From: Microthyrium microscopicum
Lineage: Eukaryota
NCBI GenBank assembly: GCA_010405405.1
Contig: MU004231.1
Span: forward strand, 3,218,401 to 3,282,400
Reading direction: 5' to 3'
Length of the DNA: 64,000 nucleotides
The translations under genes and the position numbers were made by a program. Shown here piece by piece: positions 5,468 through 59,439 of this stretch; within the stretch, counting starts at the first letter, position 1; every line of letters begins with the position of its first letter. The notes below the pieces were generated by a model. The model was not told the DNA's origin, ran no database searches, and saw nothing but the letters and a program-made list of their open reading frames with translations.

Positions 5468-5778
5468 GGGGAGGGTTAGCAAACGAATTTGTGCCGAATT
5501 CGTTTGCAGATCTTTACCCAGAGCCGTTAGTAAACGAAATGGAAGTCGAGCCGCTAGACCTGAGATCTAGCGGCTCGACTTCCAATTTGTTTGACCAAAA
5601 GAGTATAGCGTCTTGATTTAAGGTCTATCATTGGTAGAGCAGCTAAAAGCTGTGAAGACTAGATATTCTGTGGACATATTAAGGCTATAGGCTAGAGCTT
5701 GAAAGGTCCTAGTAAGCCTGCTTTTGGTTAGAGAACGAGTAAACGAATTCTACACAAATTCGTTTGCTAACCCTCCCC
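5468..5778. mobile_element. Non-autonomous TIR element (MITE-like), 311 bp
   Basis: GGGGAGGGTTAGCAAACGAATTTGTG at 5468 has its perfect reverse complement ending at 5778 (26 bp perfect, about 40 bp with 3 mismatches). GCT flanks both ends (5465-5467, 5779-5781). There is an internal perfect 18-bp hairpin at 5541-5583. Confidence 0.85.
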
Positions 5779-6086
5779 GCTACAAAGCCTAGTTCCTCTT
5801 TCGAGTACATGCTGGAGTGGCACTGACAACTGTACTCCGTAATGATGCGCTCCCCGGATTTCCGCAGACACTGAACATCACTGCACTGTTCAAGAGCTTA
5901 AACGTCATAACTACGTGGCCGAATGATATGGAAGATAGGCACTTGTATCAAGAAAATGATTGATTGTTGCTAGCTGGGCGATTTGATAATAATGTTTGAG
6001 TTTTGATAGTGAAACTGATACGATATATACACTTCAATCATTGCTTCGATGAGCCATATCCGCGCAACGTCAACATTCGCAATGGC

Positions 6087-6280
6087 TTAATGCTACACAA
6101 GAATAAGCGACTGAAAAGTATCGATATCAATAGGAAAGCTTACATTTTGAGAACAGTCGTTGCATTTGCAGTCGCTTCCTCCGCAGGCGCCAGGCTGGCA
6201 GTTGGGACAAGAAGTGCATTCACTACGGTTGGTTAGCAAGTTGATATATTCTCTAGAGAGAAATAAGTGTACCAAGCCAT
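6087..6280 (-). CDS. Small Cys-rich metallothionein (30 aa), 3 exons: 6280-6273, 6222-6144, 6092-6087
   Basis: Splice pattern ATGGCTTG|gtacac..gctaac..cgtag|exon 2|gtaagc..tgtag|CATTAA gives MACECTSCPNCQPGACGGSDCKCNDCSQNH*. It has 8 Cys in CxC/CxxC patterns, and a TATAAAA lies about 105 nt upstream. Confidence 0.85.
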
Positions 6281-34188: not shown

Positions 34189-35173
34189 TTAACAGCTTTG
34201 GGGGTTTGGCGGCGTCAATTTTGTCCAACTGCAAGGGACGTTCTTTGAATTCTACAGTATCGATACGGGTCGTGCAGTGCCCATGATAGAAGCTATCGAA
34301 CAAGATTGATGTAAGAGTAAAAACGTGGCAACGTTTTTATACTGACCTCGCCTCTTCGCGGGCTTCTTTCCTAATAAGGACGCAAACAGCGACTGGCCAG
34401 TCACACTACTATGTCTTCTATCAATGTCTGCCGTTCCGGTATTTCAGTTGTTCACTGCAGTACTCTATCCTGTGATAATTGGAACGCAGTCATCCTCGTC
34501 ACGGGCTCAGGTCAAACAAAAGGCTCCCAGTCCTTCTCTTGTACGAAATTAGAACTTTGAAACATCTGATCAAAGCCTAACAGAACAAATACAAAGTTCA
34601 GAGCTTAGGTGACATATATGACCTCAAAGCTGACAGTTCATGAGGTGTCTGTGGGGTCTGAAGTATTTAATCCACCCACTCGAGCCTCGACTTTGTGCCA
34701 CTTCACTTTCTGCACATGCGGTTAGGTCCAAGCCCGCTACCTCTTCAGTCAGTCAACAAAACTTCAATATCCCTATTACGCCTTCCTATTTGGGAAGTTA
34801 CAATCCAGGCGCGTTCTACACTTAGCTTCCTTACCCTGCAGGAGGCCATCGTGGGTCAAGGCCGTCGGGACCTGACCGGCCTCATCAGCCACAGCTCTCT
34901 CCAGGTAGCCAGAAACCGATCGAAAACAACCTTCTTTCTCTTTAATCTTCCTCGTCCATCTCTCACCTCTCACCTCTCACATCTCAAATCCCAAAGGTAA
35001 GCCAATATTGTCCCGACGGCGCAAATGACCGCATTCTCTACTATCACAAACTCGCTGTTTGTACTGTCTACGTCCACATCAACCTCCATCCAAACCAAAC
35101 AACCCAAGCTTCGCTTAAGCCCTCCAACCGGAGTCATTCCTTCTTGATTGCCAAAACAGCGAACCTTAAAGAC

Positions 35174-36568
35174 ATGTCGACGCTTTCAGCTGCTCTGCAG
35201 GCTTCTCAGACAATTCCAGGTAGTACACAGCTCCAATGGTCCCTCCTCCAGAACCTCAGAGTGGTTAACAGAATTATAGGTCGGAACGAGCTTCTTGGAT
35301 TACCAACAGAGTTGCGCTTTGAGATCTTCTCTTATTGCAGTAGAAAGGCTCTGACAGCGCTCCGAGAATGCTGTACTCAGCTTCATTCTGAAACTGAGAT
35401 AGAGCTGAAGTCCAACAAGCGCCTCTTCTGCATCAATAGCGCTTCGCTGGATTCGTATCTGTTTAGGCACGAGGAGTACCGTACCTACTGGAGAGATGAG
35501 TTCTTGGCGGGGCATGTGCCATTTCCAGTATATGCGCCTTATCATGACATCCCGCCATTACTCAAGAATTATGGCACAGTAGACCTGGACGCAGGACGAA
35601 AGATGAAACATTTGCTGTACGTAGCACAATGTGAGCCTACGCGGAACCAGCAAGCACATTCAGGCGTTTGTCCTCATTCTATACAGATACTATACGTTAT
35701 CTGTAAACGATTGTTTCCCAACTTGGAGCAAGTGAAGGTCATCACAATACAACCAGATCCTCGCTTTGCACCGCCCGACTTCTCTCCATTTCTCAAAGAC
35801 TTGGTAAAGGACCGGCGCAACAATCTCATTCAAGAACATTTTTCCGCTGCTAATATCTGCAAAGTCGGCGACAATTTCTTCGCCCAAGATCTATTGCCAG
35901 TTTCCAATGATTACAATACAAGGCAAGATTATATCTACAAACGATGTCATTTAGCCTGCGCAGCGCTTAAACATGTTCAAAAGAGCCCTTGCACCAATCT
36001 TCTTGTTTTTTCTGAACTGTCAGAAGCTATGTCAGATGCCATGAGGCTCCCTGTAGCAAGTAGTCCACTAACGTCAATCTCTGGCTGGGTGCGCGCGGAA
36101 CGCCTGAGAAGACATCGGCTGGGAGCTGTAAAGCACCAGCAAAATCTGATCAATAATCGGCGACGAGATCAACTAGCAAAAGGAAAGCCAGGTCTCATGA
36201 CGCTCTCAACGAAGAAGCTCAAGAAGCTTGAGATGGATACAACATTCGCCGAAAGATGGGCCGATTCATTTCGTCAACAAGTCAAGAGTTTGGTGGATTC
36301 GGGTCCCGAATTTGAAGACAAATTGCGTAAGCAACTTGCCGACAATATCAACCACATGGTGATTAGGACCGCGGGGCCTTTGCCATATCACCATTACCTG
36401 CCAGGGGGAAAAGTAAAACCATCTGCCGCGACTAATCTGATTAATATGGTCCTGCGAAGAGATTTGAACCTTGGAAAGATTACAGGTTCGCCTGGGGACT
36501 ATGGATGGTCACAAACAGAACAACGGTGGTTCATGAGGCAGCACGTTCAATCAGTGAACAAGGCTTAG
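35174..36568 (+). CDS. Hypothetical F-box-like protein, tandem paralog A (intact)
   Basis: LLGLPTELRFEIFSYC..LTALR. It is collinear with the next gene (IN.AS...YL, LYVIC.RLFP.LEQ, AER.RR.R, Q..KGKPG.M, PEF..KL.KQL.D). Confidence 0.8.
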   Translation: MSTLSAALQASQTIPGSTQLQWSLLQNLRVVNRIIGRNELLGLPTELRFEIFSYCSRKALTALRECCTQLHSETEIELKSNKRLFCINSASLDSYLFRHEEYRTYWRDEFLAGHVPFPVYAPYHDIPPLLKNYGTVDLDAGRKMKHLLYVAQCEPTRNQQAHSGVCPHSIQILYVICKRLFPNLEQVKVITIQPDPRFAPPDFSPFLKDLVKDRRNNLIQEHFSAANICKVGDNFFAQDLLPVSNDYNTRQDYIYKRCHLACAALKHVQKSPCTNLLVFSELSEAMSDAMRLPVASSPLTSISGWVRAERLRRHRLGAVKHQQNLINNRRRDQLAKGKPGLMTLSTKKLKKLEMDTTFAERWADSFRQQVKSLVDSGPEFEDKLRKQLADNINHMVIRTAGPLPYHHYLPGGKVKPSAATNLINMVLRRDLNLGKITGSPGDYGWSQTEQRWFMRQHVQSVNKA

Positions 36569-37763: not shown

Positions 37764-38990
37764 ATGAACGAACAAATGGCTGGATCGCAGGATTCAAACG
37801 ACTCCCCAGATTCAAGTATAGTCGCCGTCGCCACACATACCAATCCGAGCAGATCGCTAATGTTAGATCTAGCCTGTCATGAGTCGTTTCGACTCGCGGA
37901 TCTTCCCCTCGAGCTGCGCTGGGAAATCTACTCATATTGCGACAATAACACTCTGGCGGCTCTTCGAAACTCAAGCCGGCAGCTTCGTATGGAGACTGAA
38001 GAAGAAGCTTTCACTAAGCGACTCGTTGTCATCAACACTGCCTCTATCGAGGCTTATCTGCAGGAAAAGCTACATGGGAGAATTGCCTTTTGTGACCAGC
38101 AAGACTACAGAACTTTCGACAGATACAAAGCCTTGGACCCTGGACCAGAGATGACTGACAAAAACATTGCCGTCGACCTTGCTATCGCCCGTAAAGTCAA
38201 GTCACTGCTGTATCTGTCTCCAATATGTTTTCATTGTCGTCCCGGGGATATTTGCGCGGCATGTTTCACGCGATTGTACGTCATTTGCCGAAGACTATTT
38301 CCGAGCCTGGAGCAATTCAGAGTCATCGCCATATATGAGTCTTATGGGATGAGCTACGTCCACAACCGACTTCCACGGTCGCTTCCAGGCTTACCCGAAA
38401 GAATGGCTAAACACTACCATCATCCAGCAAAGATGACTTTCACTCAATACGAGTATTCTCCTGATATTATACGCAAGATTGGGGACAAATACTGTCTTCA
38501 AGAAACATTGTCAGATGAAGAAGAACGTGCGATTCGAGACTATACTCTTCAATTCGGATTTCTTGCGAAAGAAGCTCGGCAAGCGTATGCTGGGAAAGAG
38601 CTATACCTCAGATCCCAGGTTGCGAGGTCTAAAATTGATTTCAACTTGACCGTCAGAACGATATCTGATGCGATTAAATTGCCACATCTTGCCAGACCTT
38701 GGGCATTAATTGCGACATCGATTGAGGCCGAACGTGTGAGACGCTGGCGGACAGTGAGGCACGCAGACAAGGCGAAAGAAGTCGAAGAGAACCGACAGAA
38801 GCAGTTACAGAAAGGAAAGCCCGGAATTATGAAAATGTCCATGATGAAAATCCAAAAGCTCCTCCATGAACGAGAGAGCGCAGAGCAGCATGCTCGTAGC
38901 CTTCGTCACGCGATCAAAAAAGAAATGCACTCTGACCCTGAGTTTCAAGAAAAGTTGCAAAAACAGTTGGATGATGCTTCTACTTATGGT
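37764..38990 (+). pseudogene. F-box-like tandem paralog B, 5' part; interrupted by the 20-kb element
   Basis: LADLPLELRWEIYSYC. Similarity to paralog A stops at ..KQLDDASTYG, exactly where the AT-rich block starts. Confidence 0.85.
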
Positions 38991-40399
38991 CTAGATTTAT
39001 CTTACTTAGTTAGACTAGCAGCAAAATTATGGCGTTTACTAGCGTATATAAGGATATACTCTAGCTAATTAGAGCTTATTCTACTCTCTCTAACTTTTTG
39101 CTATATAGTCTAAGAGACTCTTGTTTTATTTGTTAATATTTTAGCTTAACTTTTTAGCTTAATCTAAATATAATGGCGTCTTTTATAAAATAAGTATATA
39201 AATCTTAAAATTAGTTAAATTTAAGTTGTATAGAAGAAACTACGCTTTTAAATAAATATATTTTTAAGTTATCTATGCTTCTAGTTATTTTAGTAATATA
39301 ATTCCTATATGACTAAAAAAATTGCTAGCTTAGTTAACTTTTGCCCTTTTTTGCTTATTATTAACTATATAATAACGATATGATTTGATTACTTTAAAAT
39401 ATTACGTAGTGCTTTATAATTAGCTATTCTATTATCTTATATATTTATTTTTATTATAAAATAGTATAGTTATAGATTCCTATTTATCTTTTAGTTAATT
39501 GTATATTTAGTTAGACTAGGCCTTTTTTTTGCTAAGACTACTTGCTATAATCTATTCTGCTTACGTAAGTATCCTTGTAAGTTTTTATAAGTCTTTATAA
39601 GTCCTTAAATAGCCTATATTTATCCTTTATTACTCTTTTTAACTTTATTAGTATTCTTAGTAGTTATTTTTATACCTTTAGTAGTATATATAGCTTATAT
39701 TAGTATCCTTGCGTAATCTTTATAGTTCCTTACTTGTCCTTTGAATTAATTTAATAGCTTTAGTAATGTAGTAGCTTTAGTAAAGGGTTTATTTTAGTAT
39801 TCTAGTATTTTTATTGCGTTAGTATTTAGATAGCTTTAGTATTTTAATGCTAAGTAATTATATAAGAGTATTAGTAATATCTTTACTAGTCTTAGTATTA
39901 CTTTATTTAGTTAAAGAGGTTACTATAGTAATTTTATTATAGCTAAGAAATCTTATAAGTTTAAAGGTATAGCTCTTATTATCTTTACTTTATCTTTTAG
40001 ACTTAGTATTAGTATTCTTTATGGCTTTAGTGTCTTTAGTATCTTTAGTGTCTCTAATATCTCTAGTATCTTTAGTATCTTTAGTATCTTTAGTTTCTCT
40101 AGGTATCTAGCTTATATAAGCATCTCTATATATCTTAGTATAATCCTTATTTACTCTTAGTAGCTTATAGTAGCCCTTTTTGATTAGTAGGTATAATATA
40201 TAAGTTAGTAATTATTATTATTAAATATTAATTATTATAAATATATACCTTATTATTAATGCTAACCTTATTATTATAGTATTATAGGCTAGATAAAGAA
40301 TAAGTAAAATAATTACTAGTAATCTATAAAACTAAAACTAAGACTAAGACTACTATAATCTTAGTACTTATAATTACTATAATAGGACTAGCCTAATTA

Positions 40400-42700
40400 C
40401 CTACTCTTATAATTGCCTAAACCTTATCTTCTTTAGAAATCTAAGAGGTTACTTAAAGCTATACGTACTGCTTTATAACTAGGATTAGTTAATGCTATTT
40501 ACGCCCTTATATAATTTATTTAAATCTAGCTATTAGCTAAAATATAAGAGTATATATTATAGTTATGCTTATAGAAGTTAACTAGCTATAACCCTTATCC
40601 TAGATAGGTTAGGGCCTTAAGGTTTCTAATATATAAGAGCTATAATATCTTGCTTATTACTTATACTAGATAGAGTAAGAGTTTAATACTATATAACTTT
40701 TCTATATTAATAGAAAAGATTACTTTATAGCTAATTCCTATAAACTAATTAGGGGATAAATAATTTAATAGTATCTTAGCTATCTTTAGGTCTAAGCCTA
40801 TTATTGTTTATAGCGAGACAATAACCTAGTTAAAGGATATTGCTATTAATATTATGTTTAGTTAGTATACCTATATATTAATTTTACTAGAGACTACGTT
40901 TAGTAGGCTCTTTTGTAGTATGTTAAGCAATTTTATCTTTTAGAATAGGATTAGAATAGTTGCTATTAATAAATGCTACTTAGTTAAATAATAGTAGGAT
41001 TTTAGGTCTTAGTTTGCTATAATTTATAAGCTTTATATAATACTATACTAGGATATTATATAGTTTAGTTATACTAGCACCTTAAGTTTACTTATATAAT
41101 AGTTTATTCTTTATTATAGTAGATTCTAAGAAGAGGGACTATATAAATAATAAACTATTATTATATACTCCTTTATTAACCATTAGGATGTTATAATCTA
41201 GTTTAAGCCTATACTTAAGTAAAGGTTAGTATCTTTTAATAAACTCTATTAGATCTTAGATGCTATAGTTAACTCTAAGGCTAGGAAGGCTACTCTTAAG
41301 TTAATTAAAAAGACTATTATATATATTAATAGTAGATTAAAGATCTATACAATGTTAAAATACCTTTAGGCTACTTTAGTTAGTTTAACTAAGAACTTTC
41401 TAGAGGACTAGTAGTATACTTACTTTAATAAGGATAGCGTACGTTATATCTATAACCTTATTTAAGAAATTACTTTTATTATCCCTAGCTATAATAAGAT
41501 AGTTTGGTACTAAGAATTTAAGCTTCTAGGTTCACCTTGTTAAATTATAATTATAACTATAAGCCTAGGACTTAGTATTAATATATTAGATATTATATTA
41601 ATTATTATTTAGAGGTTCTTAATACTATATAGTTTTATAGATCTATGGTAGCGTATAGGTTATAGTAGGCGTAGTTATAGGTTATTTAGTATTGCTATAG
41701 TATTTCTTTCGTATTAAATATTTAATATATTTAGATAAGAATAACTTAATCTATAGAAAGGTATTTAGGTAAGTTTACTAACTATTTAATTTATCTAGGT
41801 TATATTTTCTTTATATAGGACTTAAAATTATACGCTACTTTAATATTAATAACTTTGTATTTAGGATAGGGCTAGTTTAAGTATATTGTAGCTTAAATTG
41901 CTATTTAATAATAGTAATATTAAAAGTAAAGCTAGTACTGCCTTATAAGTATTTACTATTATATTTATTACTTCTTAAGTATTAGTTATAGATATATAAG
42001 AAGCTAATATATTACTAGATAGTATACCTAGTTTAATTCCTCTATTTTAGTTTAGAGTTAAGGTTAAAACTTATAGTAGAGTCTTACGTAAATAGTTTAT
42101 TATTATAAATTATTTAGACTATTTTTAAGAAGCTATCCTCTATGAGCTAGATAAATTCCTGCCCTAGATAATAGATTATAATTCTATACTAATTTTAAGG
42201 TATTATAATAAATACTATCTAGATAAGTTTTGTAAATTAGTTTAGTTAGTGTTTTTACTACGTAAGTAGGCTTTAAATAAGAATAGTTGTAAGGCTATTA
42301 TAAGAACGTAATTATAGGTCTAGTCCTTAGTAGTAAAAGAAGCTATGTGTCTAGAGGATAATTATAAGAGTAAATATTCTTAAGGTAAAGACTAGTTGCT
42401 AGATAATGATTTGATTAGGTAGCTAGCTTATCTTTACGCTACTAAATTTCCTTTTAATACTTAGTATTTTACTTAAGATAAATTATATATACGTATTTTT
42501 AATTTAGTTAATTAGACTAATACTATTATGTTAAAGGGAAAGCTATTATTTATCCTTTAAAAGCTAGAAACTATTATTAAGTAGTTATATAAGGATGCCT
42601 ATAAGGCTAATTATTTAGTACGCCTTATGGCTAAGGAAGTAAAGCTCTTAAAGAAAATATAAGTTATAGCGTTATAGTTAGAGTCTTAGTTATAGTTACT
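40400..42700 (+). pseudogene. RIP-destroyed RecQ-like SF2 (DExH) helicase; boundaries approximate
   Basis: Literal translation, with de-RIP reading after '=': LLITYTR*SKSLI = LLIARTGWGKSLI (motif I, ~40650-40690). KITL*LIPIN*LGDK* is motif Ia. VAINKCYLVK**=VAIDECHLVKQW (motif II, ~40960). C*IIIITISLGLSINILDI = CRIMVAT.SLGLGIDIPDI (motif V, ~41540-41595). DLW*RIGYSRR = DLWQRIGRGGR (motif VI, ~41640-41675). YYNKYY = CCNKCH (Zn region, ~42200). Confidence 0.85.
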
Positions 42701-43869
42701 TATATCGTCTTAAACTAGTAATCTTTAGCGCTAGGTTCTTAAGAAACTAATAGATAATGAGTTAATATAAGAAAGGGCTTATAGAGTATAAGAGGAAGAT
42801 AAAAGGGTTTATTTGTTTATAAGTTAGCTAATTAGATATATGTTTATCCTTATTAGTTTATTTAGAGGTTCTATGTTAATAAATATTCTAACCTTACTAT
42901 TTACTAAGTATTAGTAGGATATTACGAATTTAGATAATAGTAATATCCTAGATAAATATAAGGGATTTATAAATACTAATTCTAAAGATAATAAAGAAGA
43001 TATAGACGATAATTTATTTAATTAGCTAATACCTATATTAAATAAAGATAGTATTACTCTAGTTACTACTCCTTATACTTATTACTTAACTTATACTTAA
43101 TAAAAGAGTTATTTGCTAAGCTAAGACTTATTAAGCTAGTTAATACTACGTTATTATTAGATTAGGGCTAGTATAAAATAGTCCTTACCTATAATCTTAG
43201 AGAGAAATAGTTTAACTACTACTATTAGGAGGACTATAAGAAAGAGTATAAAAGAGTATTCTTCTTAACTAACGAGAAGAGGATTAAAGATAAGTAAGAA
43301 GATGTTGCGTTTAATATTAGAGTAGGTTAGACCTAGTGTATAATTCTAAATATTTAGTTTTTTAACTATTTTATCTACTTAGGTATTATAAGGAACTATA
43401 TAGGATTATATAGGATTCTAAGGAGTAGGTAGGTATAGTTATATAAGCACTATATTTTATATTTTTAGTTTAGAGGTTTATAAATATTAGTATTTAGAGT
43501 TCTTATCTATTATAGGCGTTATGTTCTTCTATATATATTTATAGTATATTATATTTATTAGTTTGTTATAACTACTTTGTTTATTTATTATTATTATAGT
43601 ATCTTTAGTAAATAGATATCTAAGCATTAAGCCCTATTACGAAGCCTATATATTATAATATACATTATAAAGGAGGCTCTTTATAAGTATAATAATAAGG
43701 ATGAATTTACTAGTCTATATAAGATTAGTAAGTATATTAAAGTATTCCTAAGACGTAATAGGATATTACTATAAGTATTAGTAAAACTTAGATAGTGTCC
43801 TAACTTAGATCTATTTAAATATAGTATATATATTTCTAGGTAGGAAAGCTATTTTAGCGCTTAACTTCT

Positions 43870-43995
43870 CTATATTGCTTAGTATTATAATGATGCTTAG
43901 CTTCTTTACGTTGCTTAGTATTGCTATAACGCTTAGCTTCTTTACGTTACTTAGTATTACTATAGCGCTTTGCCTCTTTATGTTACTTAGTGTTG
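43870..43995. repeat. 36-bp tandem repeat (~3.5 copies) inside the element
   Basis: Units resemble TTGCTTAGTATTGCTATAACGCTTAGCTTCTTTACG. The minus strand reads RKEAKR-like 12-aa units. Confidence 0.75.
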
Positions 43996-46900
43996 CTTAC
44001 TTACTAGTTTCATTAAGTAATAGAAACTAGACACTATAATAAGAACTAGATATTAGAAAATCTAATAGTAAGTAGACTTTACTTAGCTAAGGCTTATACT
44101 TTAATCCCTTATACGTAAAGCTAATATGGCTAATTGTTAATAGCTTAAGTACTTTACTTTTTAACGTTATAGGTAAAGACGTAAAGTTAAGTAGGTTTAT
44201 TAGAAATTAGTATTAAGAAATATTTAGTATCTTGCTATTTAACTACTTAGAAGGTATAGTTTGTGTACTAGCCTTTAAGAGCCTATTAATTATTCTTAGT
44301 TATGAAAATAGTAATTAAGTTATATTAAGAGATATAGCTATAGTTAAGGTACTACCTAAAGAATAATACAGTTTAGAGTATAGAGTTAATATCACTAGTA
44401 GTATTAAATCTACGCTAAACTTTAGTAGATTAATTATTAGGCATATTAACATTATTAGGCGCGCTAACATTACTATATATTAGAAAGTACTAGTAGTAGG
44501 TATTTTTATTATCTATTTTATTCTTTAGCAGTATACCTTACTCTTTAATAAAGACTTTCTTACGAATTATTATAATATTAATAAACTTTTATAGGACTCT
44601 ATATTATTAATTTAGTAGGATAGAGCAATTATAGTTCTATAAAGCTAGTTTATGTTCTAGCGTTAGCCTAAAGTAGATAATAAACTTAGTTACTCTAATA
44701 CTTATTAAGGAATATTAGAAGGAATATAATATAGATAGCTAAATAGCTTATTGCCTTCTACTATTAGTAACTTGTTATATTATAGTAGTTCTTTATTAAG
44801 AACCTTTCTTATGTATATTTTCTTAATATTGTTACTACTTTACTAAATCTTTATTATAAGGATAGAGAGGAGTTTTATTAGACTCTCTTTAAAGGTAGCA
44901 TATCTATTTAGATTAAAATTATTAAGTTATATAGGAATAGTATATATTATTAGCGTAAAGAGTTAGTCTTTAAGCTAGTAGTTATTTAAAGTTATAAAGA
45001 TTATAATTTTGATATAGTGTTTAGTCTAAAAGATAATACTATATAAATCTATATTAGCGTTTTATAACGTATTAATAAATAAAATATTATATAATACGTC
45101 TATTTTACTAGTCTAGGTAGAGGCTAGGTTAAGTAAGGATAATATAGTAAGCCTAGGTATTCCTTTTTAGGTAATTAATACGTTAGTAGAATATATCTAA
45201 TAGATTTTTTTACTAGATATAATATACTCTTTACTCGTTACTATTCTAGTTATACTTTATAACTAAATAGTATATATATAATAAGTATAAACTATATAGT
45301 AACTTTTGCTATATATTTAACTATTTATAACCCTTTATAATTAATTAAGGCTACTAATATTATAATCTTATTATCTTAATTAGGTAGTAGTAAGAACTTT
45401 ATAAAGTGCTACCTATTATGTCTACTACCTAAATGGTATATCCCTTATTATACTAGATATATTCTTTTCTCTTCTTTATCTTTATATACCTTTAGGTCTT
45501 CTTTTAAGCAGTTTTCTTTATACTTAACTAGATTACTTTTAAGAAGGTATAGCCTTAGGTCTTTGTTATACCTTTTTAATATAACTTTTAGGCTATTAAT
45601 ACTTTTTATATACTAACTAATTCTATTCTATTTCTTTTATTAGATAAGGGCCTTATAGAAATATAATAAGCTAATTAGGTATTACTAAATTAAGTAATTA
45701 TAACTATTTAATAGCTAATACTCTTAGTTAGACTAAGTATTTAAAATAGTAAGACTATTATATTATAGTCTTTTTAAAGCCTTTATGCCCTTTAGCTTTT
45801 AAACTTTAACTTCTTAACTTTATAACTTTATATACTTACGTCTTTTGCTATCTTTAAAAGAAAGATGTACTCTTAATACTATCCTATACTTAACGTATAT
45901 ATTATCTTTACTTATTAGCTATCTAATAGTCTCTTGCTATCCTAGCTTATTAAGGAGGTAAAGTTAATTCCTTATAGCGTACTACGCTAAAAAGGTAAAT
46001 ATATTTATCTAGAGAGTAGAATTTCTAGTTATATTATAAAGCGTTATAACTTTAATAATTTATAAGTTCTAGTATATTGCTTATAGATATTAGTAGTAAT
46101 AATTATAGTTAGTAAGTTAAGTTTAATGCTTGCTAGGCTACTTACTAAGCTTGTTTAGCTATACTTATTAAGTAAGAAGAGAGTCCCCTTTTTGTTTTAG
46201 CTTCTCTTATATTTAGCTCGCCTAAGCTATCTCTTTCCTTAAGTTTGCCTTTTAATTTTAGTAATAATAAGCTAATAGACGATAATAACGATAATAATAA
46301 TAAAGACGAAGAAGACGATAAGACTTTCATTAATCCTAATCTTCTCTCTCCTCTCGCTCTTATCCTTACTAAGGCTAAGTATAACGTGCTTATATAAAAA
46401 TTTAACTTTAGCTTAATAGCTAGAATTAACCTTAGCTAGCTACGTTTTATAGCGATAAAGCTAAGTCTAGACGTAAAGCGCTCTACTATACTTAATAAAT
46501 AATAGTCTTAGACTACTAAGAAGTAGGACGTCTTAATATTTTAAAAAAAAAAAACTATATAGTAATATTAGCTATATAATAAAGATGACTTTTAGTAAAC
46601 GCATATTAGATATTGCTACGTATTTAGCGTATATTAAGTATAGGTAAGAATATTAGTAGTTTATATAGAAAGTAAAGAATACATAGAAGAATTTTAGAAG
46701 TTATTATACTTATTATGTTATATTTCTTAAAGACTATACCTTTAGAGATAATTATTATAAATTTAAAGGTAAAGTTATAGAGTATAAGACTTTAGGTAAA
46801 TTATTTAGTTTATAAACTAGTTAAAAGATAGAGGTTTAGGAAGTAGTAGTTTAGAGTAGGTAATTAGTATAGAATAGCGTATTAACGTATACTTCTCATA

Positions 46901-49900
46901 ATGATAGTAATTACTTAAGTATTTAGTGTCTTATGCTTCCTTTACGATTATATTATTTAATTAAGTTCTATAAGAAGTAAGTAGGAGTTGCTTTGAAAGC
47001 TATGAGTATCTTATAAGATATATATTATAAGGATTATAGGCATGTTTAGTATTCTTTAATATCTTTATAATTATATCGTTTAATTAGGTTCTATAAGAAG
47101 TAAGTAGGAGTTGCTCTAAAAGCTACAAGTATTCTATAAGGCGTGCGTTATAAGCGTTATAAGTATATAGTAATATATTATAGTTGTTTAAATTAATTAT
47201 ATTGGGTGTATTAATAATATTATTCTTATCGTCTTATTATCTATTATATGCGTTATAATATAAACGTTAATATTAGTAAATAGTTAGTTATAAATAGGTA
47301 AAGTTAGAAAATATACAATGTCTATATAGCTAATATATGCTTTACAGAACTATAGGATATGCTAGCCTAAAATAAGTAGTTTAGTATTTTATTAGACTTT
47401 ATAACTAGTTAGGTATTAGAAGGGTATATTTAGTAGGATATAGGATATCTAGAGATAATTAGGTAATGTTAAGAATCCTAAAGGATGTTAATTTTAGGAC
47501 TAGCTATTATTACTATACTCTTATAATTAAAATAATATAAACTTATAAGCTAATAATCTAATTTATTAACTTAATTTGCTATACTATCTTTTACCTTATT
47601 CTTTTAATTTAATAGTTATCCTAGTATACTAAGCTATTATATTGCATTATCTTTAGTTTGTCTATTTATCTTGCTACTAAAACCTATATTCTTATTAATT
47701 ATAGCTCTACTAATACTAGAACGCTATCTGCTTTATTCTTTAAAGGTATTTAAAGAATAATAATAGATAGCTTATATTCTTTTTTAGCTTTAGTACTAGC
47801 TTTTAATAGGCTATATTAAATAGAAACTACCTTTACTATTATACTTACTAATGTACGTATATATTAGCCTTTATTATATATATTTAGGCTATGCTATTAA
47901 ACAAAAGGATAGGAACGTTAAATTATTAAGGGATAGTTATTAGTTTAATTAATAGAGAAACTAAAAAGGTAACTTAATAGTAAAAGCGTAAGGTTATAGT
48001 AAGTATTATTACTCTTAATATAGTAGCGAGTAATAGCTAAATTAGTATAAATATATATAGTATATAGTTTAACGCTAGAGGGTAATTTACTATATTATAT
48101 CTATATAGTAATATTTTAGCTATACTTAGCTAGTAATGATTAGTTCTACTATTTAGTAATAATAGTAGGTATAAATATTTAGGCTAAAAAAATATATATT
48201 ATTATTAATAAATAAGATAGCTTAGAATAATATAAGGCTAAGAAATAGGTAGAATAGTTTAGTAATAATGGTAGGTATAAATATCTAGGCTAAAAGAATA
48301 TATATTATTACTAATAAATAAGATAGCTTAGAATAATATAAGGCTAAGAGATAGGTAGAATAAGATAAGTTTATATCTTATAAGTATTTATAATAAGTAT
48401 TAAAATATAAATATTATAATCCTTTAAGCACTTTATAAAGGCTTAATTGAGGTATGTACTCTTATTGCTAAACTATAGTATACGAACTTTATAATTAAAC
48501 TAGACTATTATAATTCTTAAGGAGTAGAAGGGCTAGACTATATAGTTTTTAAGGAGAGGAAGGGCTAGACTATGTAGTTCTTAAGGAGTAGAAGGATCTT
48601 TAGTAAAAGATGCTAATATTAACTTAGGTTATTAGGTTATTATTAGTAACATTGACTTTAAAGTCTATAACTAAATATTCTTTAGGATAATAGTAAATAT
48701 TTATTATGCGTAGCTAGTAAATATTTATTAGACTATAAATACTTTATAGTATAATTGTTAGGTTCTAAACGTAGTAGAGTCTATAAATATATAGTGCTAT
48801 AGAGTTTTTGTAGATATTAATATATATTAATTAAATATTATTACTATATTTAGTATTTAAATGTTATAGTATCTTTAGATAGCTTTATTAGATAACTTTT
48901 AAGCTATATAGGACCTAAGTAGCTACTTATACTAGAGACTTATAAGTTTAAGGCCTTCTACTTAATTAGGATTATAAAAGTAAAGTTCTTATATTTATTA
49001 ATTAGAGTTACGCCTTTTTTAATAAGGTTCTAGGGTTAGGATAAAGTAATTATATAATTAGCAAAATATATTAATTAATATTAAGTTAGTAGGTAGATAT
49101 CTACTTAGAATAAAGCTAAAATTATTTTAGCTTATACTTATTGCTCTTAAGTCTTATCTACTAGTATTATATTTATCTATATAGGTTATTTTTAATAGGC
49201 TATAGGAATAACGTATCTTTTTATAAAATATTCTAGTAATAAATAGTTTTGTCTTTAGAGTATAAAAGGAGATATTTACCGTTAGGATAAAATATTAGTA
49301 TATAAATCTAGTTATTATAGCTAATAAGTATTTTAATTAGTGTTTCTCTACTATCCTAAAGCTTAATAAGCTTATTATAACTAATAGTAAGAATTTAGGT
49401 AAGCTAACTATATAAGGTTATAAGAATTAGGCTTAAGGTAGTAAATAGTAGTAGATATTAGTAGTTAGTAAAGTTTAGAATATAGAGAGTTAAGTAACTT
49501 AGAGATTTTGCTATAAAATATTAGAGATTATAGTTAGATTATAATAATATAAGTATACTTACTCTGCCTTGCTTTACTTATACGTACCTTACTTTGCCTA
49601 AATATAGCTAAATGCTTTATAATTAATCTTTTTAGGGTTAGTCTATATTAAACGTTGTTTACTAAGATTATAGATACTTAAAGTTTAATTATTAGCTTTT
49701 TATAAATTCTACTTAAGGGATTATTAGCCTATAATAAGTAGGTATAGAATATAGCCTAAAGACGCTATATATTCTAAGTAAGGCCTTTCTATTTATATTA
49801 AGATAGCTATATATTATCTACTAATAAAATAAAGAGTTATAAGTAATTTAGTAAGCTATTACTAGTTTATATACTTAATTATATACTAAGTAGCTATCTA

Positions 49901-51417
49901 CTAGATAAGGTTACTTTATAAGTAGTACTTAGTTTATATTAATAACTATATAAGTTTATAATATTAAAGAAAAGGTTAAGTCTAAATAGTTTCTTAAATA
50001 TGGCATTAAGATGCCTAGGCTACTTATTTATAATTAATAGGCTATATATATATTATCTAATAAAAATTAGAAGATATTATATAGATTACTATAATATAGT
50101 TCTTAAGCTCTCTATTAGTTAAAATATAAAGGTTAGTTGCTAAATATTAACGTAAGATAATAGAGTAGTATTATCTTAAGTCGCTATAAAGAAGTAAAGA
50201 TATTAATTAGATTAAGTAGATAGGTCTTAATATAATAAGTAAAGAATGCATCTATAAGATGAACTTAATAGTTTAATAATAGGAAGTAAAGAAAATATAA
50301 GTTAGATTAAGTTAATGTAATTTATACCTTAATTGCTATATATTTAGTAGATATTTAAAATAGAGTATTTTTTAGAGGTATAAACTAATAGGATAACTAA
50401 CTATATATAGGTATAATATAAGTATACTTACTTATCCTATTGTATTCCTATCTATATTATAGCTAATTATTATTTAAAGTTTACTTATACTAGTTTATAT
50501 GCTACTACTATTTAGGATTATATTTTATTTATATATTTCTTAAATAATATAATCTTATACTATATATATATACTTTAGTATAGAGATTTAGTTTGACTTA
50601 TATATCTTAATTATTAACCTATACTATAATATACTACTATTATTTACCTTATTGCTACTCTACTTATTTATCTAATAGCTTATTTTAAATATAACGCTAT
50701 CTAATTATTATTCTAAGTAGTTAAATGTATACTATAAAACTATACTAGAATATACTAATTAAAGCTTAATTTTCTATTGCTCTATTTATCTATTGCGCTA
50801 ACTTAAAGTAATATCTATAATATTATTCTAAGTAAGGAAGATTAATACTATATACGTTAAGCTATACTAATAGTGTAAAAGAATAATATAAGGAAGATAA
50901 GTTAATATTAATATTAATATAAACTCTTATATTTAAGATACTAGTCCTATTAACTAAGTTTATAAGATCTTACCTATTACTATAAGCCTAGAAGGAAGTA
51001 CTTATTTATTATGTCTACTTTTAATATTATAACGGAAGGTTAAAGGCTTGCTTCTAATTTTAATTATCTTATAATAACTTTTTTATAATAAATAGCTAGT
51101 AGTTATACTTATATACTATCTTCTTATCTAAAGCTAAATAAGGCATATAGTAGTAGGTACTTAATGCTAACTACTTTGTTTTATACTTCTTTATAAGTTA
51201 GATATAGGAATAAGTTTGCTAAATTAATAGGAAGGAGAGGAAGAGAAGGGGGTTATACTCTAAGTATTATAAGAGACTAGATTAATATTTAGTTTTATAA
51301 TATAAGCTTTAAGAACAATCGTAGCTACTAAATGTAATAGATACATTAAGCTAATTTAGTAGTTGCCTAATACTAATATAATTAACTAATTAATACTTCT
51401 AGTAGCTTCTTTCTTAT

Positions 51418-51720
51418 TTATAATAGCTATATTTAGATAGGCTATAACTAAAGCTATTATAGTTGCTAATGTAAGTACCTTTTCTATAATAGCTATACTT
51501 AGATAGGCTATAACTAAAGCTATTATAGTTGCTAGTGTAAGTACCTTCTTTATAATAGCTATACTTAGATAGGCTATAATTAAAGCTATTATAGTTGCTA
51601 GTATAAGTATCTTCTCTATAATAGCTATATCTAGATAGGTTATAACTAAAGCTATTATAGTTGCTAATATAAGTACCTTCTTTATAATAGTCGTACCTAG
51701 ATAGGCTATAATAAAAGCTA
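51418..51720. repeat. 66-bp tandem repeat (~4.6 copies) inside the element
   Basis: The unit starts TAATAG at 51421, 51487, 51553, 51619 and 51685. Confidence 0.9.
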
Positions 51721-51852
51721 TAATAAAGGTATTACTAAAAGTAGTAAAGTAAGCTAGCTTACCTTAAGGGTATTAATCTTAAGTACTAGGAGCTATAGAG
51801 GAGTACGCATAATATTATAGTAAGCGCTTCTAAACTTATATAGGTTTCTATA

Positions 51853-52085
51853 CTATTAATTTAGTAGGATAAAGTAATTATAGTTCTATTAAGTTAGTTT
51901 ATGCTCTAGCGTTAGCCTAAAGTAGGTAATAGACTCTATGCTATTAGTTTAGTAGGATAGAGTAATTATAGTTCTATAGAGCTTATTTATACTCTAGCGT
52001 TAGCCTAAAGTAGGTAGTAAACTCTATGCTATTAATTTAGTAAGATAGAGTAATTATAGTTCTATAGAGCTTATTTATGCTTTAG
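51853..52085. repeat. 88-bp tandem repeat (~2.7 copies), with a further copy at ~44603-44685
   Basis: CTATTA(A/G)TTTAGTA..TATAGTTCTAT..CTAGCGTTAGCCTAAAGTAG starts at 51853, 51941 and 52029 (last copy partial) and recurs at 44603. Confidence 0.85.
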
Positions 52086-55000
52086 TAAAGGCGCTATAAG
52101 TAGATAGTATAAAGGAAAAAGAAGAAGAGAAAGATAAATAAAGGAAGAAAGATATTTATATTCTATAGACCTTTAAGAATTTCTCTTTAAGTAAGTTTAA
52201 ACCTAATATTATAAGGGTAGTGTTAATCTTTTTAGGAAGTAGCTAGGATATGCTTATAATAGACTTTTAAGAAATACTACTACTATTAACGTGCTAGGCT
52301 TAGGCTAAAATATTAAGGCTATTAGCGTACTTTAGTACTACTAATATTAAAGCTATTAGCGTATTAAGGTAGTTAAGTCCTTAAACTTAAGGAAGTAATA
52401 GTAGTAAAAGAACTATTAAAGACTAGAAGACTAAATAGTAATTAAAAGTAGTAAGAAGTATTGCTAGCGTACTTTATTAGTAATATTAAGGCTATTAGCG
52501 TATTAGAGTAGTTAAGTCCTTAAACTTAAGGAAGTAATAGTAGTAAAAGAATTATTAAAGACTAGAAGACTAGATAGTAACTAAAAGTAGTAAGAAGTAT
52601 CGTTAGTGTGCTTTACTACTAATGCTAAGGCTATTAGCGTACTAAAGAAGAAGGAAAGAAGAAGAGGAAGAAGAGGGAGGGTTAAAGGATTACTATATTT
52701 TTATTACTAATCTTCTAATTAATTTGGTATGTTCTTTCTAAGGATTACTATACTCTTATTATTAATCTTTTATCTTAATCTAGTAGAGCTAAAGCTTAAG
52801 ATAGTAAAGTACTTAGACTTACTAGGAAAACTTGCTCTTTATATTCTTTTTAAGGATTACTATACCCTTATTATTAATCTTCTAACTAATGTGGTATTCT
52901 TTATACGCTTTATAGCTAGAGTACTTGTATTATAATATTAAATTTATTGTCTTATAGAACGTAAGCTTCTATTTTAACTAGGTAGATATAGTTCTTAAAT
53001 CTATTATTTTAATAGAACGTAAGCTTCTATTTTAACTAGGTATTCTTAAATTTGCTATCTCATAGAATGTAAGCTTTTATTTTAACTAGGAGGTTATTCT
53101 TACTACTAATAATGCTACTTATATAGGTATACTTACTGAAACCTATTAATATCTGTATATCTATATATATTCTAATATATAGGTTATAAATAGAAGGAAT
53201 TACTACTAAGGTATTTAATTAAAATGATAGTAAATATTGCCTACATTACTTATAATAGGGGACATTATCTATCTTAAAAAGCTAAGAGTAGCTACTAGTA
53301 GTAAAAAGACTTGTAAGATAGTATAGTAAGCTTATCCTTCTAAGTAAGATAGCTAATTTAGCGCCTAGATATTCCTAGCGTCTAAAAGGCTTATAGAATC
53401 CCTAATAGTTATTAATACTTATTATAACGTGTAGTATTAAGAAGGTATTCTTTATAACCTACTCTTTTAAGTGAGATAGTTAACTTATACGCTTATTAAT
53501 TCTTATATGCTAGCGTAATTTATAGTACTACTCCTTTTTAATTAAAGCTTTGCTACGATTAGAAGGTATCCTTAGTAAATCTACCCTTCTAAATAAGATA
53601 GCTAATTTAGTATCTAGATGATCTTGCTGCCTAGAAGGCTTATAGAAATTCGTACGTTTATTAATACTTGTATGTTAGTATAACTTATAATACTACTTAT
53701 TCTTAATAGAATCTTGCTACGCTTAAATTTGTACTTATCGTTAAGTTGCTTTAAGACGTATATAAAAAGCGTTCTAGTCTTATAAGGTTACTATTAAATA
53801 TTAAAATCTTACCTCCTAAATAAGGCTTGAATACTTAAACTTTAACTATCTTTTTTTAGTATAGTATAGAGTAAGGACTTTAGTTGGCTAATTATTATTA
53901 TTATTAATAGTAAAAATTATATCTATAATAATATAGAGAGTATTAAGTACTATAAAAGCGTTCTATTTAGGCTTTAGTAGGTTATTAGTGTTATTATTAC
54001 TATTTAGTACTTAAACCCTTCTCTTTTAAATTAGATAAGAGTACTTAAACTTTAACTACTTTTATTTAGTGTAGTATAGAGTTAGTAGGTGTATAGGCTA
54101 TTAATATTATTATTACTATTTAGTACTTAAATCCTTTCTTCTTAGATTAGATAAGAGCTTCTAATATAGGAGTAGTATTTAATAAACTATTTATGAAAGT
54201 AAGTCTTTCTATATATTTTCTTATGTATTCCTACTAATAGAAATAGCTAATATAAATAATTGTAGACAACTTAGGTAATAAAGACTTATAAGCCTTTAAT
54301 GCTACTTACGTAGGTTAACTTCTAGTTAGTTATCTATAGAACCTTATTATTATTAAGATAAGAGTAGCTATTATAGAGAGTATAGTACTTATTATTAATA
54401 ATATATATGTAAAAGAAATCTAGTATATAAGTATACTATTTAAGATTTATAGAACTATTAGTATTAAAGACTAGTGCTTAGGTAATTATTATATAGATAA
54501 ACTTTTAGAACTTTAGAAATTTATAGATAGAGCAATTAGTAAACTAGTTAAGGCTAAGAAGATATAGTGCTAAGTAAAGGATTATAGTATAGTAGTCTTA
54601 CTTAATATTATATATAGTAAAAGAATTAGTAGTAGGGTAGTTAGATATCTAATAAGTACTTAAACTTTAACTACCTTCTTTTAGTATGGTATAGAATAAG
54701 GACTTTAGCGTGTCTTAGTTATAATATATAATACTAAAGGTAAGTAAGTCTAAAGTAATAGGATAGTTATAGTTTATAACTTAGTTAGCGTCATAATACT
54801 TACTACTAATAATATTAAAGATAAGTAAGTTTAGAATAATTAGATAAATGCTAGTATTATAATATAGTTAGTATTATAATACTTACTACTAATTATATTA
54901 AAGGTAAGTAGATTAGGAGGAAGGTAATAAATCTTATTTACTATATTGTTAGTATTGCTATACTTCTTATAAAGGATAATACTTAATATAATAGAAATAC

Positions 55001-55399
55001 GTAAGGAGTTACTTAGATTGGCTTAAAGGTTAGTAAGAGAGACTTAGATATTATATTTAGGCTTAGTAAGACTAAGCTTAAATTGGCTTAAAGGTTAGTA
55101 AGAGAGATTTAGATATTATATTTAGGCTTAATAAGACTAGGCTTAGATTAGCTTATAGGTTAATAAGATAGATAAGATTAGTATTTATTATAGTACTATA
55201 TCTATATTACTTATAGATAAATAAATATTTAAAACTAATTAGATTAGAATAGGTTTATGAATAGGAAGGGTAAAGGTAGTTATAGGTAGGGTAATGTAAG
55301 TTATAAGAGCTCTTTAGAAGTTAAGGTAATCCCTAAGTTGTAAACTAAAAATAACGAATTACTAACTATACTTATTAATACTTAGTTAGCCTAATAAGC

Positions 55400-58300
55400 C
55401 TCTAAATAACTCTTTGCTAATAAGTAAATAGATTTAATAAATTAAGTCCTTTTATTATAATAAATATATATAATTAAATTAACTTAAAAGTTTAGGTTAA
55501 AGTTTATTACTATCTCTAAAGTTACTAAACTTATCTTTCTCTTTAGTATCCTAAGCCTAGGTATAATTTACTACTATACTAGTATTAAACTTTAGCTTAA
55601 CGTCTCTACTACCTTTAAGTATTATATATGCTTAACTTAGAATTACTATATGTTTTTTATTAAACGCTTTTACCTTACTAGTAAGCATTATAGCCCTAAG
55701 TGTTTATATATTTTAAGAGTTGTAATTATTTCCTTTAATTTAGATAGCCTTTAGAAACTAACGCTCTATAAAATTGCCTTAAATTAAAGTATTATATATT
55801 ATATTAATGTTATGCTTTATAGTAGTAATACTTCTTGTACTAGATATATATTTACTAAATGAGCCCTTTAGTATAGCTTTTAACTTTCTGCTATAACTAT
55901 TTATAAGGTATATATAATTAAAAGTAATATGAATATTATGGGTTGAATTCTTTTAGGTCTTTATGTCTAGTTTTGTACTACTATTTATATATTCTAAGCT
56001 TAAATCTATAGCCTTATAACTATGTAGTTTACTAAGCTAGTTAACTAGGCTAGAAGCTAGTATAGCGCGTTATAACTTTAGTTTATTAATAGTATCTAGT
56101 ATATTCTACTTAAGCTATATTATCTTATTACTATAATTATTAGAACTAGACTTATAGAACTAATATATTATAGGATTAATTAGCTAATAAAGTAAACTAA
56201 CGTCTATATATTTAATAGCGTGTTTTAGTATTAATAATAGGTAGATCTTTTATATATATTAATATAATGTCTAGAACTAAATATTAACGTCCTTTAGTAT
56301 TATTGTACTACTTTCTTTGTTTTTATATAAACTAGTCTAACCTTCTACTTAATATATAAGAATTTGAATGTCCTAGATAATTTTAATTACTTAATTTACT
56401 ATTAACGTTTTAATAATGTCTCTTATAATTGTATTATCTACTAGTACGTTAGAAGTTATATTTAGAGGGTAGTGTTTATAATAGCGTAAAGTAAGCTTAA
56501 ATAAGGCTAAGTTTTAAGTATTAAATACTTATTATAGAATAGGTTCTAGCTTATGTAACTAAATAGACTAGCGTATTTTATTCTTTAGATAACCTTAAGT
56601 AGTAATATTATGCTTAATAGAATATAGAGTATGCTTATAGTAGTTAATAGGTCCTTAATAGCTTTTTATAATGTTTTCTCTAAGGCACTTTTAAGTATAG
56701 AACTACCTAATAACTAGATAAAGCTACTCCTTTCTATTAAAGGCTAGAGATAAATAAGATTGCTTAGATTTAATAGCTTAATTATTCTTTATACTAAGTT
56801 AATTTCTATATATAAGAAATAAGTAGTAGGCAAATATATAAGGTTTACTTATTAGGAAGTTAGTTAGCTACTAATATTAGTAGAAGTTTATACTTAATAT
56901 ATCTATTTTATCTAAGCTATATTTTAGAAACTTAAGTACGTTTATAAAGATCTTATAATATATATTATATATACTATTTATAGTACCCTTATTTTTAAAT
57001 ATACTAGCAAGCTATTAATATTTAGTTTTAATTAGGGGAAGTTAATTAAGTTATAATTATACTAATTTCTTCTTCTTATCTTTCTTATTACTAAATATCT
57101 CCTTAAGTTAAGTCTTAAAGGTAACTTAGAGACTTTAATATATTAAGACTTCCTTAATAGCATTAGCTATAGGTTTACTAATTATGTATTCTTTATAAAG
57201 AAGTAAGTTTATAATTAAGCGTAAAGGTAATTTATATATTAGATTATATATATCTTAAGTTAAACTACTAGGTAGATAATAAGAATATCTAACTATAGTA
57301 GCTATAGTTAGATTTTTTATAATATAACTATAGCTAATCCTCTTATTTTGAACTTAATCTTTGTAGTTAAAGTTATTATATATAAGCGCTAACTAAGGAT
57401 TATAGGCTAAGGTAGTAAGCTATTTTTATAAATATATAAGCGTAAGGTTGTAAACTAACTATAAGATACTAAAGGCTACTAAGGATAGTTATAGAATATA
57501 TAGAGATGCTTATATAAGTATTCTAGTGTTTATATTTTGTAGACTATAGATATTAGGAGGCCTATACGATAAGTAAGGGCTTATAAGAAGGAGTAAGGAT
57601 AGATATAAGATATATAGGAATGCTTATATAAGCATTCTAGCGTCTATATTTTGCTAGAGGAGTAATACTAGAAGGGTCTTATAGCGATATATAAGCTATT
57701 ATAAGAGGTAATAAGGGATAATAAGGGTTATAATAATACTAGAATAGGGTATTTTATTAGTAAAAACTTAGTAAGCTAATCTATAACCTATACTATATAG
57801 TAATACTTGTAGTAAATACTAAGTATACTAAAAGTCTATATTACTTTCTTTTTAACGCTAGCGTAATAAAGATATATACTTAGAAGTATTAATATTATAT
57901 TAGACTTTTAGTAATTCTAATGGCTATATACTATAGTAGTAATAAGAAATATAATTAGATTATTAGTATTTATAGACTATATTTTATAAGAACTTTAATA
58001 GCTTCTACTATGCTATATAATATTATAATAAAAAGTAACTTATTAAGGAGCTAGAAGTAATAGACGCTTTATACTTGTTAGAAAGTTAATTAAATTAGGA
58101 TTCTTTTTGTAGTTAAACTGCCTAAACTATAGCGTTCTTAGAAGTTATTATAACTTAGTTATAAAGCTATTAGGATGATAATTACCCTAGATCTAATTTA
58201 TAGAGTAGTAAGTACTAAGTATATTACTTAAAGTAGACTAACGACTCTTAAGAATTAAATAGTATTAGTATTATAGAGTAATAGTATAATGTTAGTTATC

Positions 58301-58500
58301 TATATTTACCTAAGTATCTAAGAATTTAGGAAAAGTTTAAGAGATTAAGTATAAATAAGAGAGTATAGATTCTAGTTTTAACTTAGTAGTAAGTCGTAAG
58401 CTATGCTATTAAGGTAATAGATAGTAATTATTATCTTTATCTTAATTGCTATCCTCTTTTTTTGTACTTAATGCGCTACTAGACTAATAGGGCGTAGAGA
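55400..58500 (-). pseudogene. RIP-destroyed DUF6589/Academ-type transposase; boundaries approximate
   Basis: Minus-strand literal translation, with de-RIP reading after '=': IYNNFNYKD = IYDNFNYKD (~57380). FKNKGT = FENEGT. IYRN*LS = IHGDQLS (~56800). FNRKE*LYLVIR*FY = FDRKEWLHPVIGWFH (~56720). LKHAIKYIDVSLL = LKHAIK.ADVGLL (~56220). L*RAILASSLVN = LQRAILASGLVN. AIDLSLEYIN = AIDLSLEHIN (~55995). Confidence 0.8.
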
Positions 58501-59085
58501 GAAGAATTGGAGGTAGGCTAGAGAGTCTTAGTACTAGTAATGTATTCTTTATTAATAAGAGAGGCGATATAGTAATAGGAGGTAGGGTTGATTGTCTTTT
58601 TAATTAAAACTATTGCTCTAGACGCGTAGGAAGAGTCCTTAGTTATTAGTTTAAGGGCCTAAGTAAACTAATAGAAATAGGGCTATAATAAGGCTAATGC
58701 TTAGACCTAGTATAGCGCTTTTAAGTAAATATAGTAAATTTAAATAATAGAGAAAAATAAGGTAAGTAAAGTGATATAAAAATAAATATAAATATATATA
58801 TAGTTATAGAGATAATATAATTTAAAAAGTGCGTATTCTTTTATATAAAGTTAATAGGGCCCTTACTAAAATAGAATAAGAGTTACTTAGATATAGTAAG
58901 CTGCTTTAAAATTACATATGTCCTAAAATATCTAATTAGCTAAGGGTAAGCTAGGTTCTATATAGAATAGCTAAGGATACTTAGTCAGTAAGAGCTAAAG
59001 GCTCTCTAACTAAGTAGGGAGCTAAAGGCAACTTGTTTTTAAAGTAGCTTGCTACGTCTAAGAAACTAAGATAAGTCTAGATAGT

Positions 59086-59439
59086 GTAGGTCTAAGAATC
59101 TAGTCCTATCATTACCATGACTTGAAACAATATCCTACAGCGAATGACTTGATCACCATGATTTTGGAAGGTAGACCAAATATTATCCTTGACAAGGACA
59201 TAAAACTACAGCAATCCACCATGTTGGCCCAGACACAAAATCTCGATAAAGAGAGAGATATGGGACATGAGTACGATTGGGTAGAGTCAGAAAGTCGATG
59301 GATCTTGAGAATTGAAGTCCGATCCACAGCATCTGGTTATTTTCAGCTCAATGGGGATGGCCCTACCCTCCGTATGAAATGGCATGCTCCCATTCATTCC
59401 GATATCCGCCCTCGAACTTTGGAACGACAAGAAGTGTGA
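59086..59439 (+). pseudogene. F-box-like tandem paralog B, displaced 3' part
   Basis: SYHYHDLKQYPTANDLITMIL...HEYDWVESESRWILR aligns with the paralog A C-terminus PYHHY...AATNLINMVL...DYGWSQTEQRWFMR. It is in frame with the 5' part once the element and one TSD copy are removed. Confidence 0.85.

Follow-up and report, generated by a model that had tools for sequence, protein, structure and literature searches.

Kojima in 2020 reportedly described AcademH as a lineage of the Academ superfamily. Two further systems are relevant here: Starships are large ascomycete elements, prone to repeat-induced point mutation (RIP), with an interior of other DNA and a DUF3435 tyrosine-recombinase captain as first gene, and KolobokH elements have TTAA as their target. 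We compared with these systems a locus of the fungus Microthyrium microscopicum, contained in a window of 64,000 nucleotides (the whole stretch of DNA analysed: GenBank assembly GCA_010405405.1, contig MU004231.1, positions 3,218,401 to 3,282,400 of the forward strand; coordinates below are those of the window). An AT-rich block of the window had been read, from its letters alone, as one giant transposon with terminal inverted repeats (TIRs), a RecQ-like helicase and a DUF6589-type transposase. We conclude that positions 38997–59074 (20,078 bp) are very probably a single inserted copy of an ascomycete cut-and-paste DNA transposon from an AcademH-like lineage, dead through RIP.

AcademH elements have target-site duplications (TSDs) of 9–10 bp and AcademX elements of 3–4 bp, and the length of the TSD in Academ has been suggested to relate to the accessory enzyme (PMC10045372). 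Low-copy AcademH elements are reported from Basidiomycota, Ascomycota and Mucoromycota (PMC10799480). All six families MarorAcadem-1 to -6 of Marasmius oreades start with TAG and have 9-bp TSDs, one of them given with a question mark, and an autonomous MarorAcadem family measures 6,026 bp (PMC8290104). KolobokH is a fungal DDE transposon carrying a RecQ helicase (PMC9587614). Among the KDZ elements Dileera and Kyakuja, with TSDs of 7–8 bp, Dileera reaches at most 11 kb and has 8-bp TSDs, MarorKyakuja-2 is 42 kb long, and termini read CACCT or CCCA (PMC8290104).

An 8-bp duplication delimits a RIP-mutated element

The block at about 39.0–59.1 kb has a GC content of 0.20–0.27, compared with about 0.46 in its surroundings, sharp edges, and a clear RIP signature (TpA/ApT 1.4–2.2; (CA+TG)/(AC+GT) 0.1–0.4). 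Its ends, genes and interior do not differ in GC, RIP indices or strand bias, and CA is rarer than TG in all 20 one-kb bins (in one of them with counts of only 10 against 11). On the right, the RIP signature fades within about 25 bp of the element; because RIP barely enters the flanks, its spread from the element ends is, on general knowledge of RIP, an unlikely cause of the mutation of the interior.

Both edges carry the same 8 bp, GTCTAGAT (Table 1). A given pair of ends would have an exact 8-mer match in its flanks by chance with a probability of about 1.7e-5, and among the 14 left-type and 11 right-type terminal motifs of the window, only the pair at 38997 and 59074 has identical 8-bp flanks. 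Directly inside the duplication, both termini read TTATCTTA, the RIP form of the TTATCTCA terminus of related elements (TTA[T/C]CT[C/T]A over the window and the relatives together). The TIR is about 19–25 bp long, with 16 of the first 19 terminal bases pairing, and a 40-nt alignment of the ends, which included 6 TSD bases, scored 40 against a best score of 32 among 990 interior windows. The predicted repeats are thus inverted beyond chance, and the expectation of a TSD shorter than the 9–10 bp reported for AcademH was borne out by the 8 bp measured.

Helicase and transposase relics converge within the element

The Pfam match of the transposase relic (Table 1) was obtained on the minus frame translated with X at stops, and the homologue hidden Markov model (HMM) was built from 36 relatives. 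HMMER searches with the relic retrieved 151 proteins at E≤0.001, and a word-based protein search with the RIP-mutated sequence recovered none of 5535 candidates. DUF6589 was the sole domain in 20 of 20 homologues tested, the KDZ domain being found in none. The window transposase is about equally distant from 12 intact relatives (transversion distance 0.27–0.34) and therefore constitutes a family of its own. The family consensus contains the motifs YDN, GDQ, FH, K-GD and DxxxE-LN, whose conserved D, D and E residues are RIP-altered in the window copy.

An AlphaFold model of the intact homologue P0002 (mean predicted local distance difference test, pLDDT, 70.9) was compared with 48,161 chains using VIA-align. 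Hermes ranked first (Z 10.2, root-mean-square deviation (rmsd) 6.6, 292 aligned), ahead of ISCth4 of the IS256 family (Z 9.8, rmsd 4.9, 260 aligned), the P element (Z 9.3, rmsd 6.2, 329 aligned) and Tn5 (Z 8.4, rmsd 4.8, 209 aligned), with integrases and RAG1 next. From this model, we infer that the DUF6589 protein is a DDE transposase of the RNase H fold with a large helical insertion. The published RNase_H_Academ profile has fDNwD at its start, then R-t-g-d, n-h some 20 residues later, and DealE at its end (PMC5751038). Compared by eye over 83 of the 465 positions of that profile, the DUF6589 consensus has the same motif order and similar spacing, which supports the probable link of DUF6589 to Academ that the original prediction had made. 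DUF6589 clusters are found in animals and basidiomycetes.

At the opposite end of the element, the helicase relic was detected with an HMM made from the intact helicases of related loci, which upheld its predicted presence on the plus strand; Pfam (no family in the helicase frame) and a PDB sequence search (no match) missed it on their own. Its frame probably extends to about position 43300, given the codon scan described below and the 930–1070 amino acids of the relatives' helicases. The HMM matches also agree with the layout originally proposed, a helicase (+) on the left and a DUF6589 transposase (–) on the right with about 12 kb between them. A DUF3435 captain had no Pfam match in the scanned frames (39.0–40.4 kb was left out, and RIP lowers sensitivity); the terminal genes are a helicase and a DDE transposase, consistent with the earlier statement that this does not look like a Starship. 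The ends, the 8-bp duplication, the two convergent gene relics and the RIP indices all fit one single TIR element killed by RIP, as had been supposed.

Related elements share the termini and an 8-bp duplication

A metagenome scan with 11 close transposase homologues yielded 58 related loci, 19 of which were examined for their termini. The terminus TTA[T/C]CTCA followed by (T)CAGAC was present at both ends of nine elements (6.3–9.6 kb) and at one end of seven further loci. TSDs of 8 bp and of varied sequence were found in five of the eight relatives with both flanks readable: exact in L017, L020 and L022, and near-complete in L019 (7/8) and L051 (6/8), with no 9- or 10-bp TSD in any of the eight. 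Where a locus was long enough, a helicase gene (DEAD plus Helicase_C) followed the transposase in convergent orientation, and the transposase of intact relatives has the same two-ORF (open reading frame) layout as that of the window.

A small, cysteine-rich third gene is conserved in 15 of about 35 loci longer than 4 kb (L002–L006, L009, L010, L017, L019, L020, L022 and L026–L029) and is absent from the two-gene relatives; in L003 it has a weak DUF3716 match (E=0.037). In L005, L006, L017, L020, L022, L026 and L027, every gene is preceded by motif clusters with a 10-bp period (AACTCCTG-type, often ending CCAATCA), which also occupy the gap of the transposase gene and may be promoter or transposase-binding sites. 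Similar motifs occur outside the interior of the window element (Table 1); within the interior, the best motif score was 20.1, compared with 19.6 for the highest of 30 shuffles. L031 and L033 have TTACCTCAG ends, similar to the CACCTCAG termini given for families of Dileera, which likewise make 8-bp TSDs; this likeness may be due to chance. Larger inverted repeats of 140–170 bp enclose L027 (450–10329) and L051 (1106–12104), suggesting that these are nested in, or captured by, other TIR elements. L005, at least 13.3 kb and the largest intact relative, has at 5333–6129, between transposase and third gene, a gag-like and an SH3/chromo-like fragment of a Tf2/Gypsy-type retroelement; the Tf2-type SH3/chromo-like match (E=1.4e-5) is below the family cut-off, and an interior ORF of L005 had no usable match in the ESM Atlas.

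The element resembles AcademH and departs from it in its ends

As in AcademH, an Academ-like DDE transposase is paired with a DEAD/Helicase_C helicase, TIRs and a fungal host, and the TSD is longer than that of AcademX. The DDE/RNase H-fold transposase (on the P0002 model) and the superfamily 2 (SF2) RecQ-like helicase are features shared with AcademH; the 9–10 bp TSD and the TAG termini, the latter known from six Marasmius families and perhaps not general to AcademH, are not found here, nor is a length of 20 kb with a 12-kb interior shared with AcademH as described. The AcademH-like character originally proposed is supported by the two genes and by the motifs matched by eye to the Academ profile, and the element probably works like AcademH and descends from it; because of its 8-bp TSD and TTA ends, we file it as a variant of AcademH rather than a member. 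MarorAcadem elements are likewise fungal, Academ-type and bounded by TIRs, and the size of their autonomous family resembles that of the smaller relatives found here, but they start with TAG and make 9-bp TSDs, whereas this lineage starts with TTA and makes 8 bp.

Likeness to other systems is more partial. KolobokH, like the element described here, pairs a DDE transposase with a RecQ helicase in fungi, but its transposase is of the Kolobok type, and no TTAA duplication is present here. KDZ elements share the 8-bp TSD, the fungal host and the capacity for large size; they differ in their CACCT or CCCA ends and in the KDZ domain, which none of the 20 homologues tested has. Like Starships, the element is large, RIP-prone, ascomycete and filled with other DNA, yet Starships are moved by a tyrosine-recombinase captain, and the present element is marked by its DDE transposase, its TIRs and its 8-bp TSD. 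No description of an AcademH-like lineage with 8-bp TSDs was found in the literature searched, although Repbase and the original AcademH paper, which lay outside that search, may list one.

The interior and the interrupted host gene

The interior contains tandem arrays with units of 36, 123, 106, 66, 88, 139, 83 and 65 bp, about 2.3 kb in total. It had no Pfam family in 12 frames (a short stretch was left out of the scan), no tblastx match to the 58 related loci, and no long terminal repeat (LTR) pair, nested exact TIR plus TSD or retroelement domain; these negatives are weak, because Pfam also missed the helicase in the same RIP-mutated DNA. Two weak matches from tblastn of 656 ORFs (E 6e-4 and 5e-3) were disregarded as AT-rich sequence matching AT-rich sequence. 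A simulated-RIP codon scan, whose model was over-mutated (GC 0.155), recovered both known genes weakly and hinted at frames near 43.3–45.3, 46.0–46.6 and 51.1–51.8 kb. Two arrays, a 66-bp one at 51419–51725 (22-codon units) and a 36-bp one at 43858–43991 (12-codon units), have kept a reading frame, perhaps as remnants of genes for repeat proteins. A unit of the 88-bp array has a second copy, 90% identical, at a distance of 7.2 kb within the element (44582–44686 and 51831–52085); this 105-bp repeat was considered as an LTR pair and rejected, being one unit of that array.

The element lies in an F-box-like gene (Table 1). Its paralogue at 34946–36568, 1.2 kb upstream, has an F-box match, and the two form a tandem pair of diverged (33%) genes, 34946–36568 and 37776–59439. 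Removal of the element and one TSD lets the frame continue for about 118 codons with a single stop near the junction, probably due to RIP leak, and the 3' part scored 60 against the C terminus of the paralogue (maximum 55 in 1000 shuffles). The annotated form of the interrupted gene is truncated and reads 25 codons into the transposon; a word-based search of public proteins with this gene returned only itself among 4283 candidates.

Table 1 Features of the transposon and the interrupted host gene in the window
Feature	Position	Strand	Evidence
Host F-box-like gene, 5' part	37776–38988	+	Weak F-box match, E=0.009; 33% identity to paralogue
Left TSD copy, GTCTAGAT (8 bp)	38989–38996		Identical to 59075–59082
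Left TIR, helicase end, starts TTATCTTA	38997–39021	+	Matches the relatives' TTATCTCA..(T)CAGAC terminus when RIP-type changes are allowed for
Internal motif upstream of helicase, inverted relative to the two gap motifs	40110–40171	+	RIP-worn analogue of relatives' clusters
RecQ-like SF2 helicase relic, matched core	40554–41723	+	HMM of intact neighbours' helicases, E=6.9e-56; tblastn E=6e-37
Interior, RIP-mutated throughout, short tandem arrays	43300–55600		Between probable helicase end and transposase end
DUF6589 transposase relic, catalytic part	55644–57422	–	Pfam PF20231, E=1.2e-13; homologue HMM, E=7.8e-81
Two internal-motif copies in gap between transposase parts (probable intron)	57458–57633	–	Inverted relative to the copy at 40110–40171
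Transposase relic, N-terminal part, other frame	57773–58546	–	HMM of 11 upstream ORFs, E=7.2e-19
Right TIR, transposase end, ends TAAGATAA	59050–59074	–	Match to relatives' terminus
Right TSD copy, GTCTAGAT	59075–59082		Identical to left copy
Host gene, 3' part, in frame, one stop (59101–59103)	59083–59439	+	Alignment to paralogue C terminus

Alternative boundaries, affiliation and origin of the interior

The original prediction, spanning 38986 to 59085, implies an element at 38991–59080 whose ends are CTAG and whose TSD is 5 bp, ATGGT and ATAGT; a variant of these boundaries has TCTAG ends and a 3-bp TSD. The letters ATGGT and ATAGT are present where the prediction put them, the two pentamers differ by a single RIP-type change, and such boundaries restore the host reading frame equally well. 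They require one mismatch where the 8-bp duplication requires none, no relative has CTAG ends, and the outermost bases of the family terminus fall exactly on 38997 and 59074, 6 bp further in. GTCTAGAT is nearly palindromic and holds the palindrome TCTAGA, so the TIR seems 6 bp longer, ATGGT and ATAGT are left outside and a false 5-bp TSD results; the additional pairing is that palindrome within the TSD. The 5-bp and 3-bp models were rejected on the identical 8-mers and on the position of the relatives' terminus, and it would be very surprising if either were correct. A separate superfamily-level group, for example one allied to the 8-bp-TSD Dileera/Zisupton elements, would account for a TSD of 8 bp and TTA as first bases where published fungal Academ elements have 9 bp and TAG; Dileera, with CACCT ends, has 8-bp TSDs, and L031 and L033 begin TTACCTCAG. 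This affiliation is improbable, as the 20 homologues match DUF6589 only and KDZ not at all, the motifs follow the order and spacing of the Academ profile over the positions compared, and DUF6589 clusters in animals and basidiomycetes coincide with the range reported for AcademH. Several observations nonetheless weigh against an AcademH-like element with an 8-bp TSD. Foldseek with the P0002 model returned nothing at E≤0.001, and the link to Academ was drawn by eye over 83 of the 465 profile positions. Three of the eight relatives with readable flanks (L006, L015 and L033) had no TSD, perhaps, as a guess, through collapsed consensus contigs, and the five TSD-positive relatives represent a single metagenome and only two families. 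The third gene was not found in the window (HMM, six frames, nothing at E<1). The host paralogue scores the 8-bp and 5-bp models alike (110 and 112) with the same frame restored, so the host gene confirms the insertion and not the length of the TSD.

We keep to a single insertion of an AcademH-like transposon with an 8-bp TSD, for which the history of the interior has two candidate accounts. An element of 7–10 kb may have inserted and then been inflated in place by nested insertions, each of which underwent RIP as a member of its own family; in that case nothing of 20 kb ever moved. This is a serious possibility, though short of probable: relatives with both ends measure 6.3–9.6 kb, the retroelement-like scrap in L005, which accounts for some of the additional length of that relative, indicates that nesting occurs in the lineage, and no interior gene was identified in the window, Pfam scans being weak on such heavily RIP-mutated DNA. 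No LTR pair, nested TIR plus TSD or retroelement domain was seen in the interior, and no step in RIP load or strand bias was found anywhere in the block; this evenness, together with the slight leak of RIP into the flanks, favours movement of the whole as one unit. We infer that internal growth before RIP is somewhat the better account of the two. A more far-reaching proposal, which we advance only tentatively, is that an undescribed ascomycete AcademH-like branch with TTATCTCA ends and 8-bp TSDs had giant members (20 kb here) that moved with at least 12 kb of captured DNA, including genes, independently of Starships and hidden from annotation by RIP.

Mechanism and significance

In the mechanism that we propose, the DUF6589 transposase would bind the TIRs of about 20 bp, excise the element and insert it where the two target strands have been cut 8 bases apart, repair of this staggered cut then producing the TSD. 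The RecQ-like helicase, by analogy, would be an accessory that most likely unwinds end or target intermediates. Internal gain, through tandem amplification and captured DNA, would have made this family two to three times as large as its relatives, and the element was probably present in more than one copy near its 20-kb size, in which case RIP would have mutated it over its whole length and inactivated both genes.

The AcademH type has been described, large fungal TIR elements have been published (the 42-kb Kyakuja), and the present copy, which knocked out a host F-box gene, is dead. What the locus adds is a function, that of a DDE transposase probably of the Academ type, for a Pfam family still labelled as unknown, and a simple signature for a fungal lineage, TTATCTCA ends with an 8-bp TSD, which departs from the reported association of the helicase with TSDs of 9–10 bp. 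If the long middle did travel with the element, the lineage would represent a second kind of large ascomycete cargo element beside Starships.

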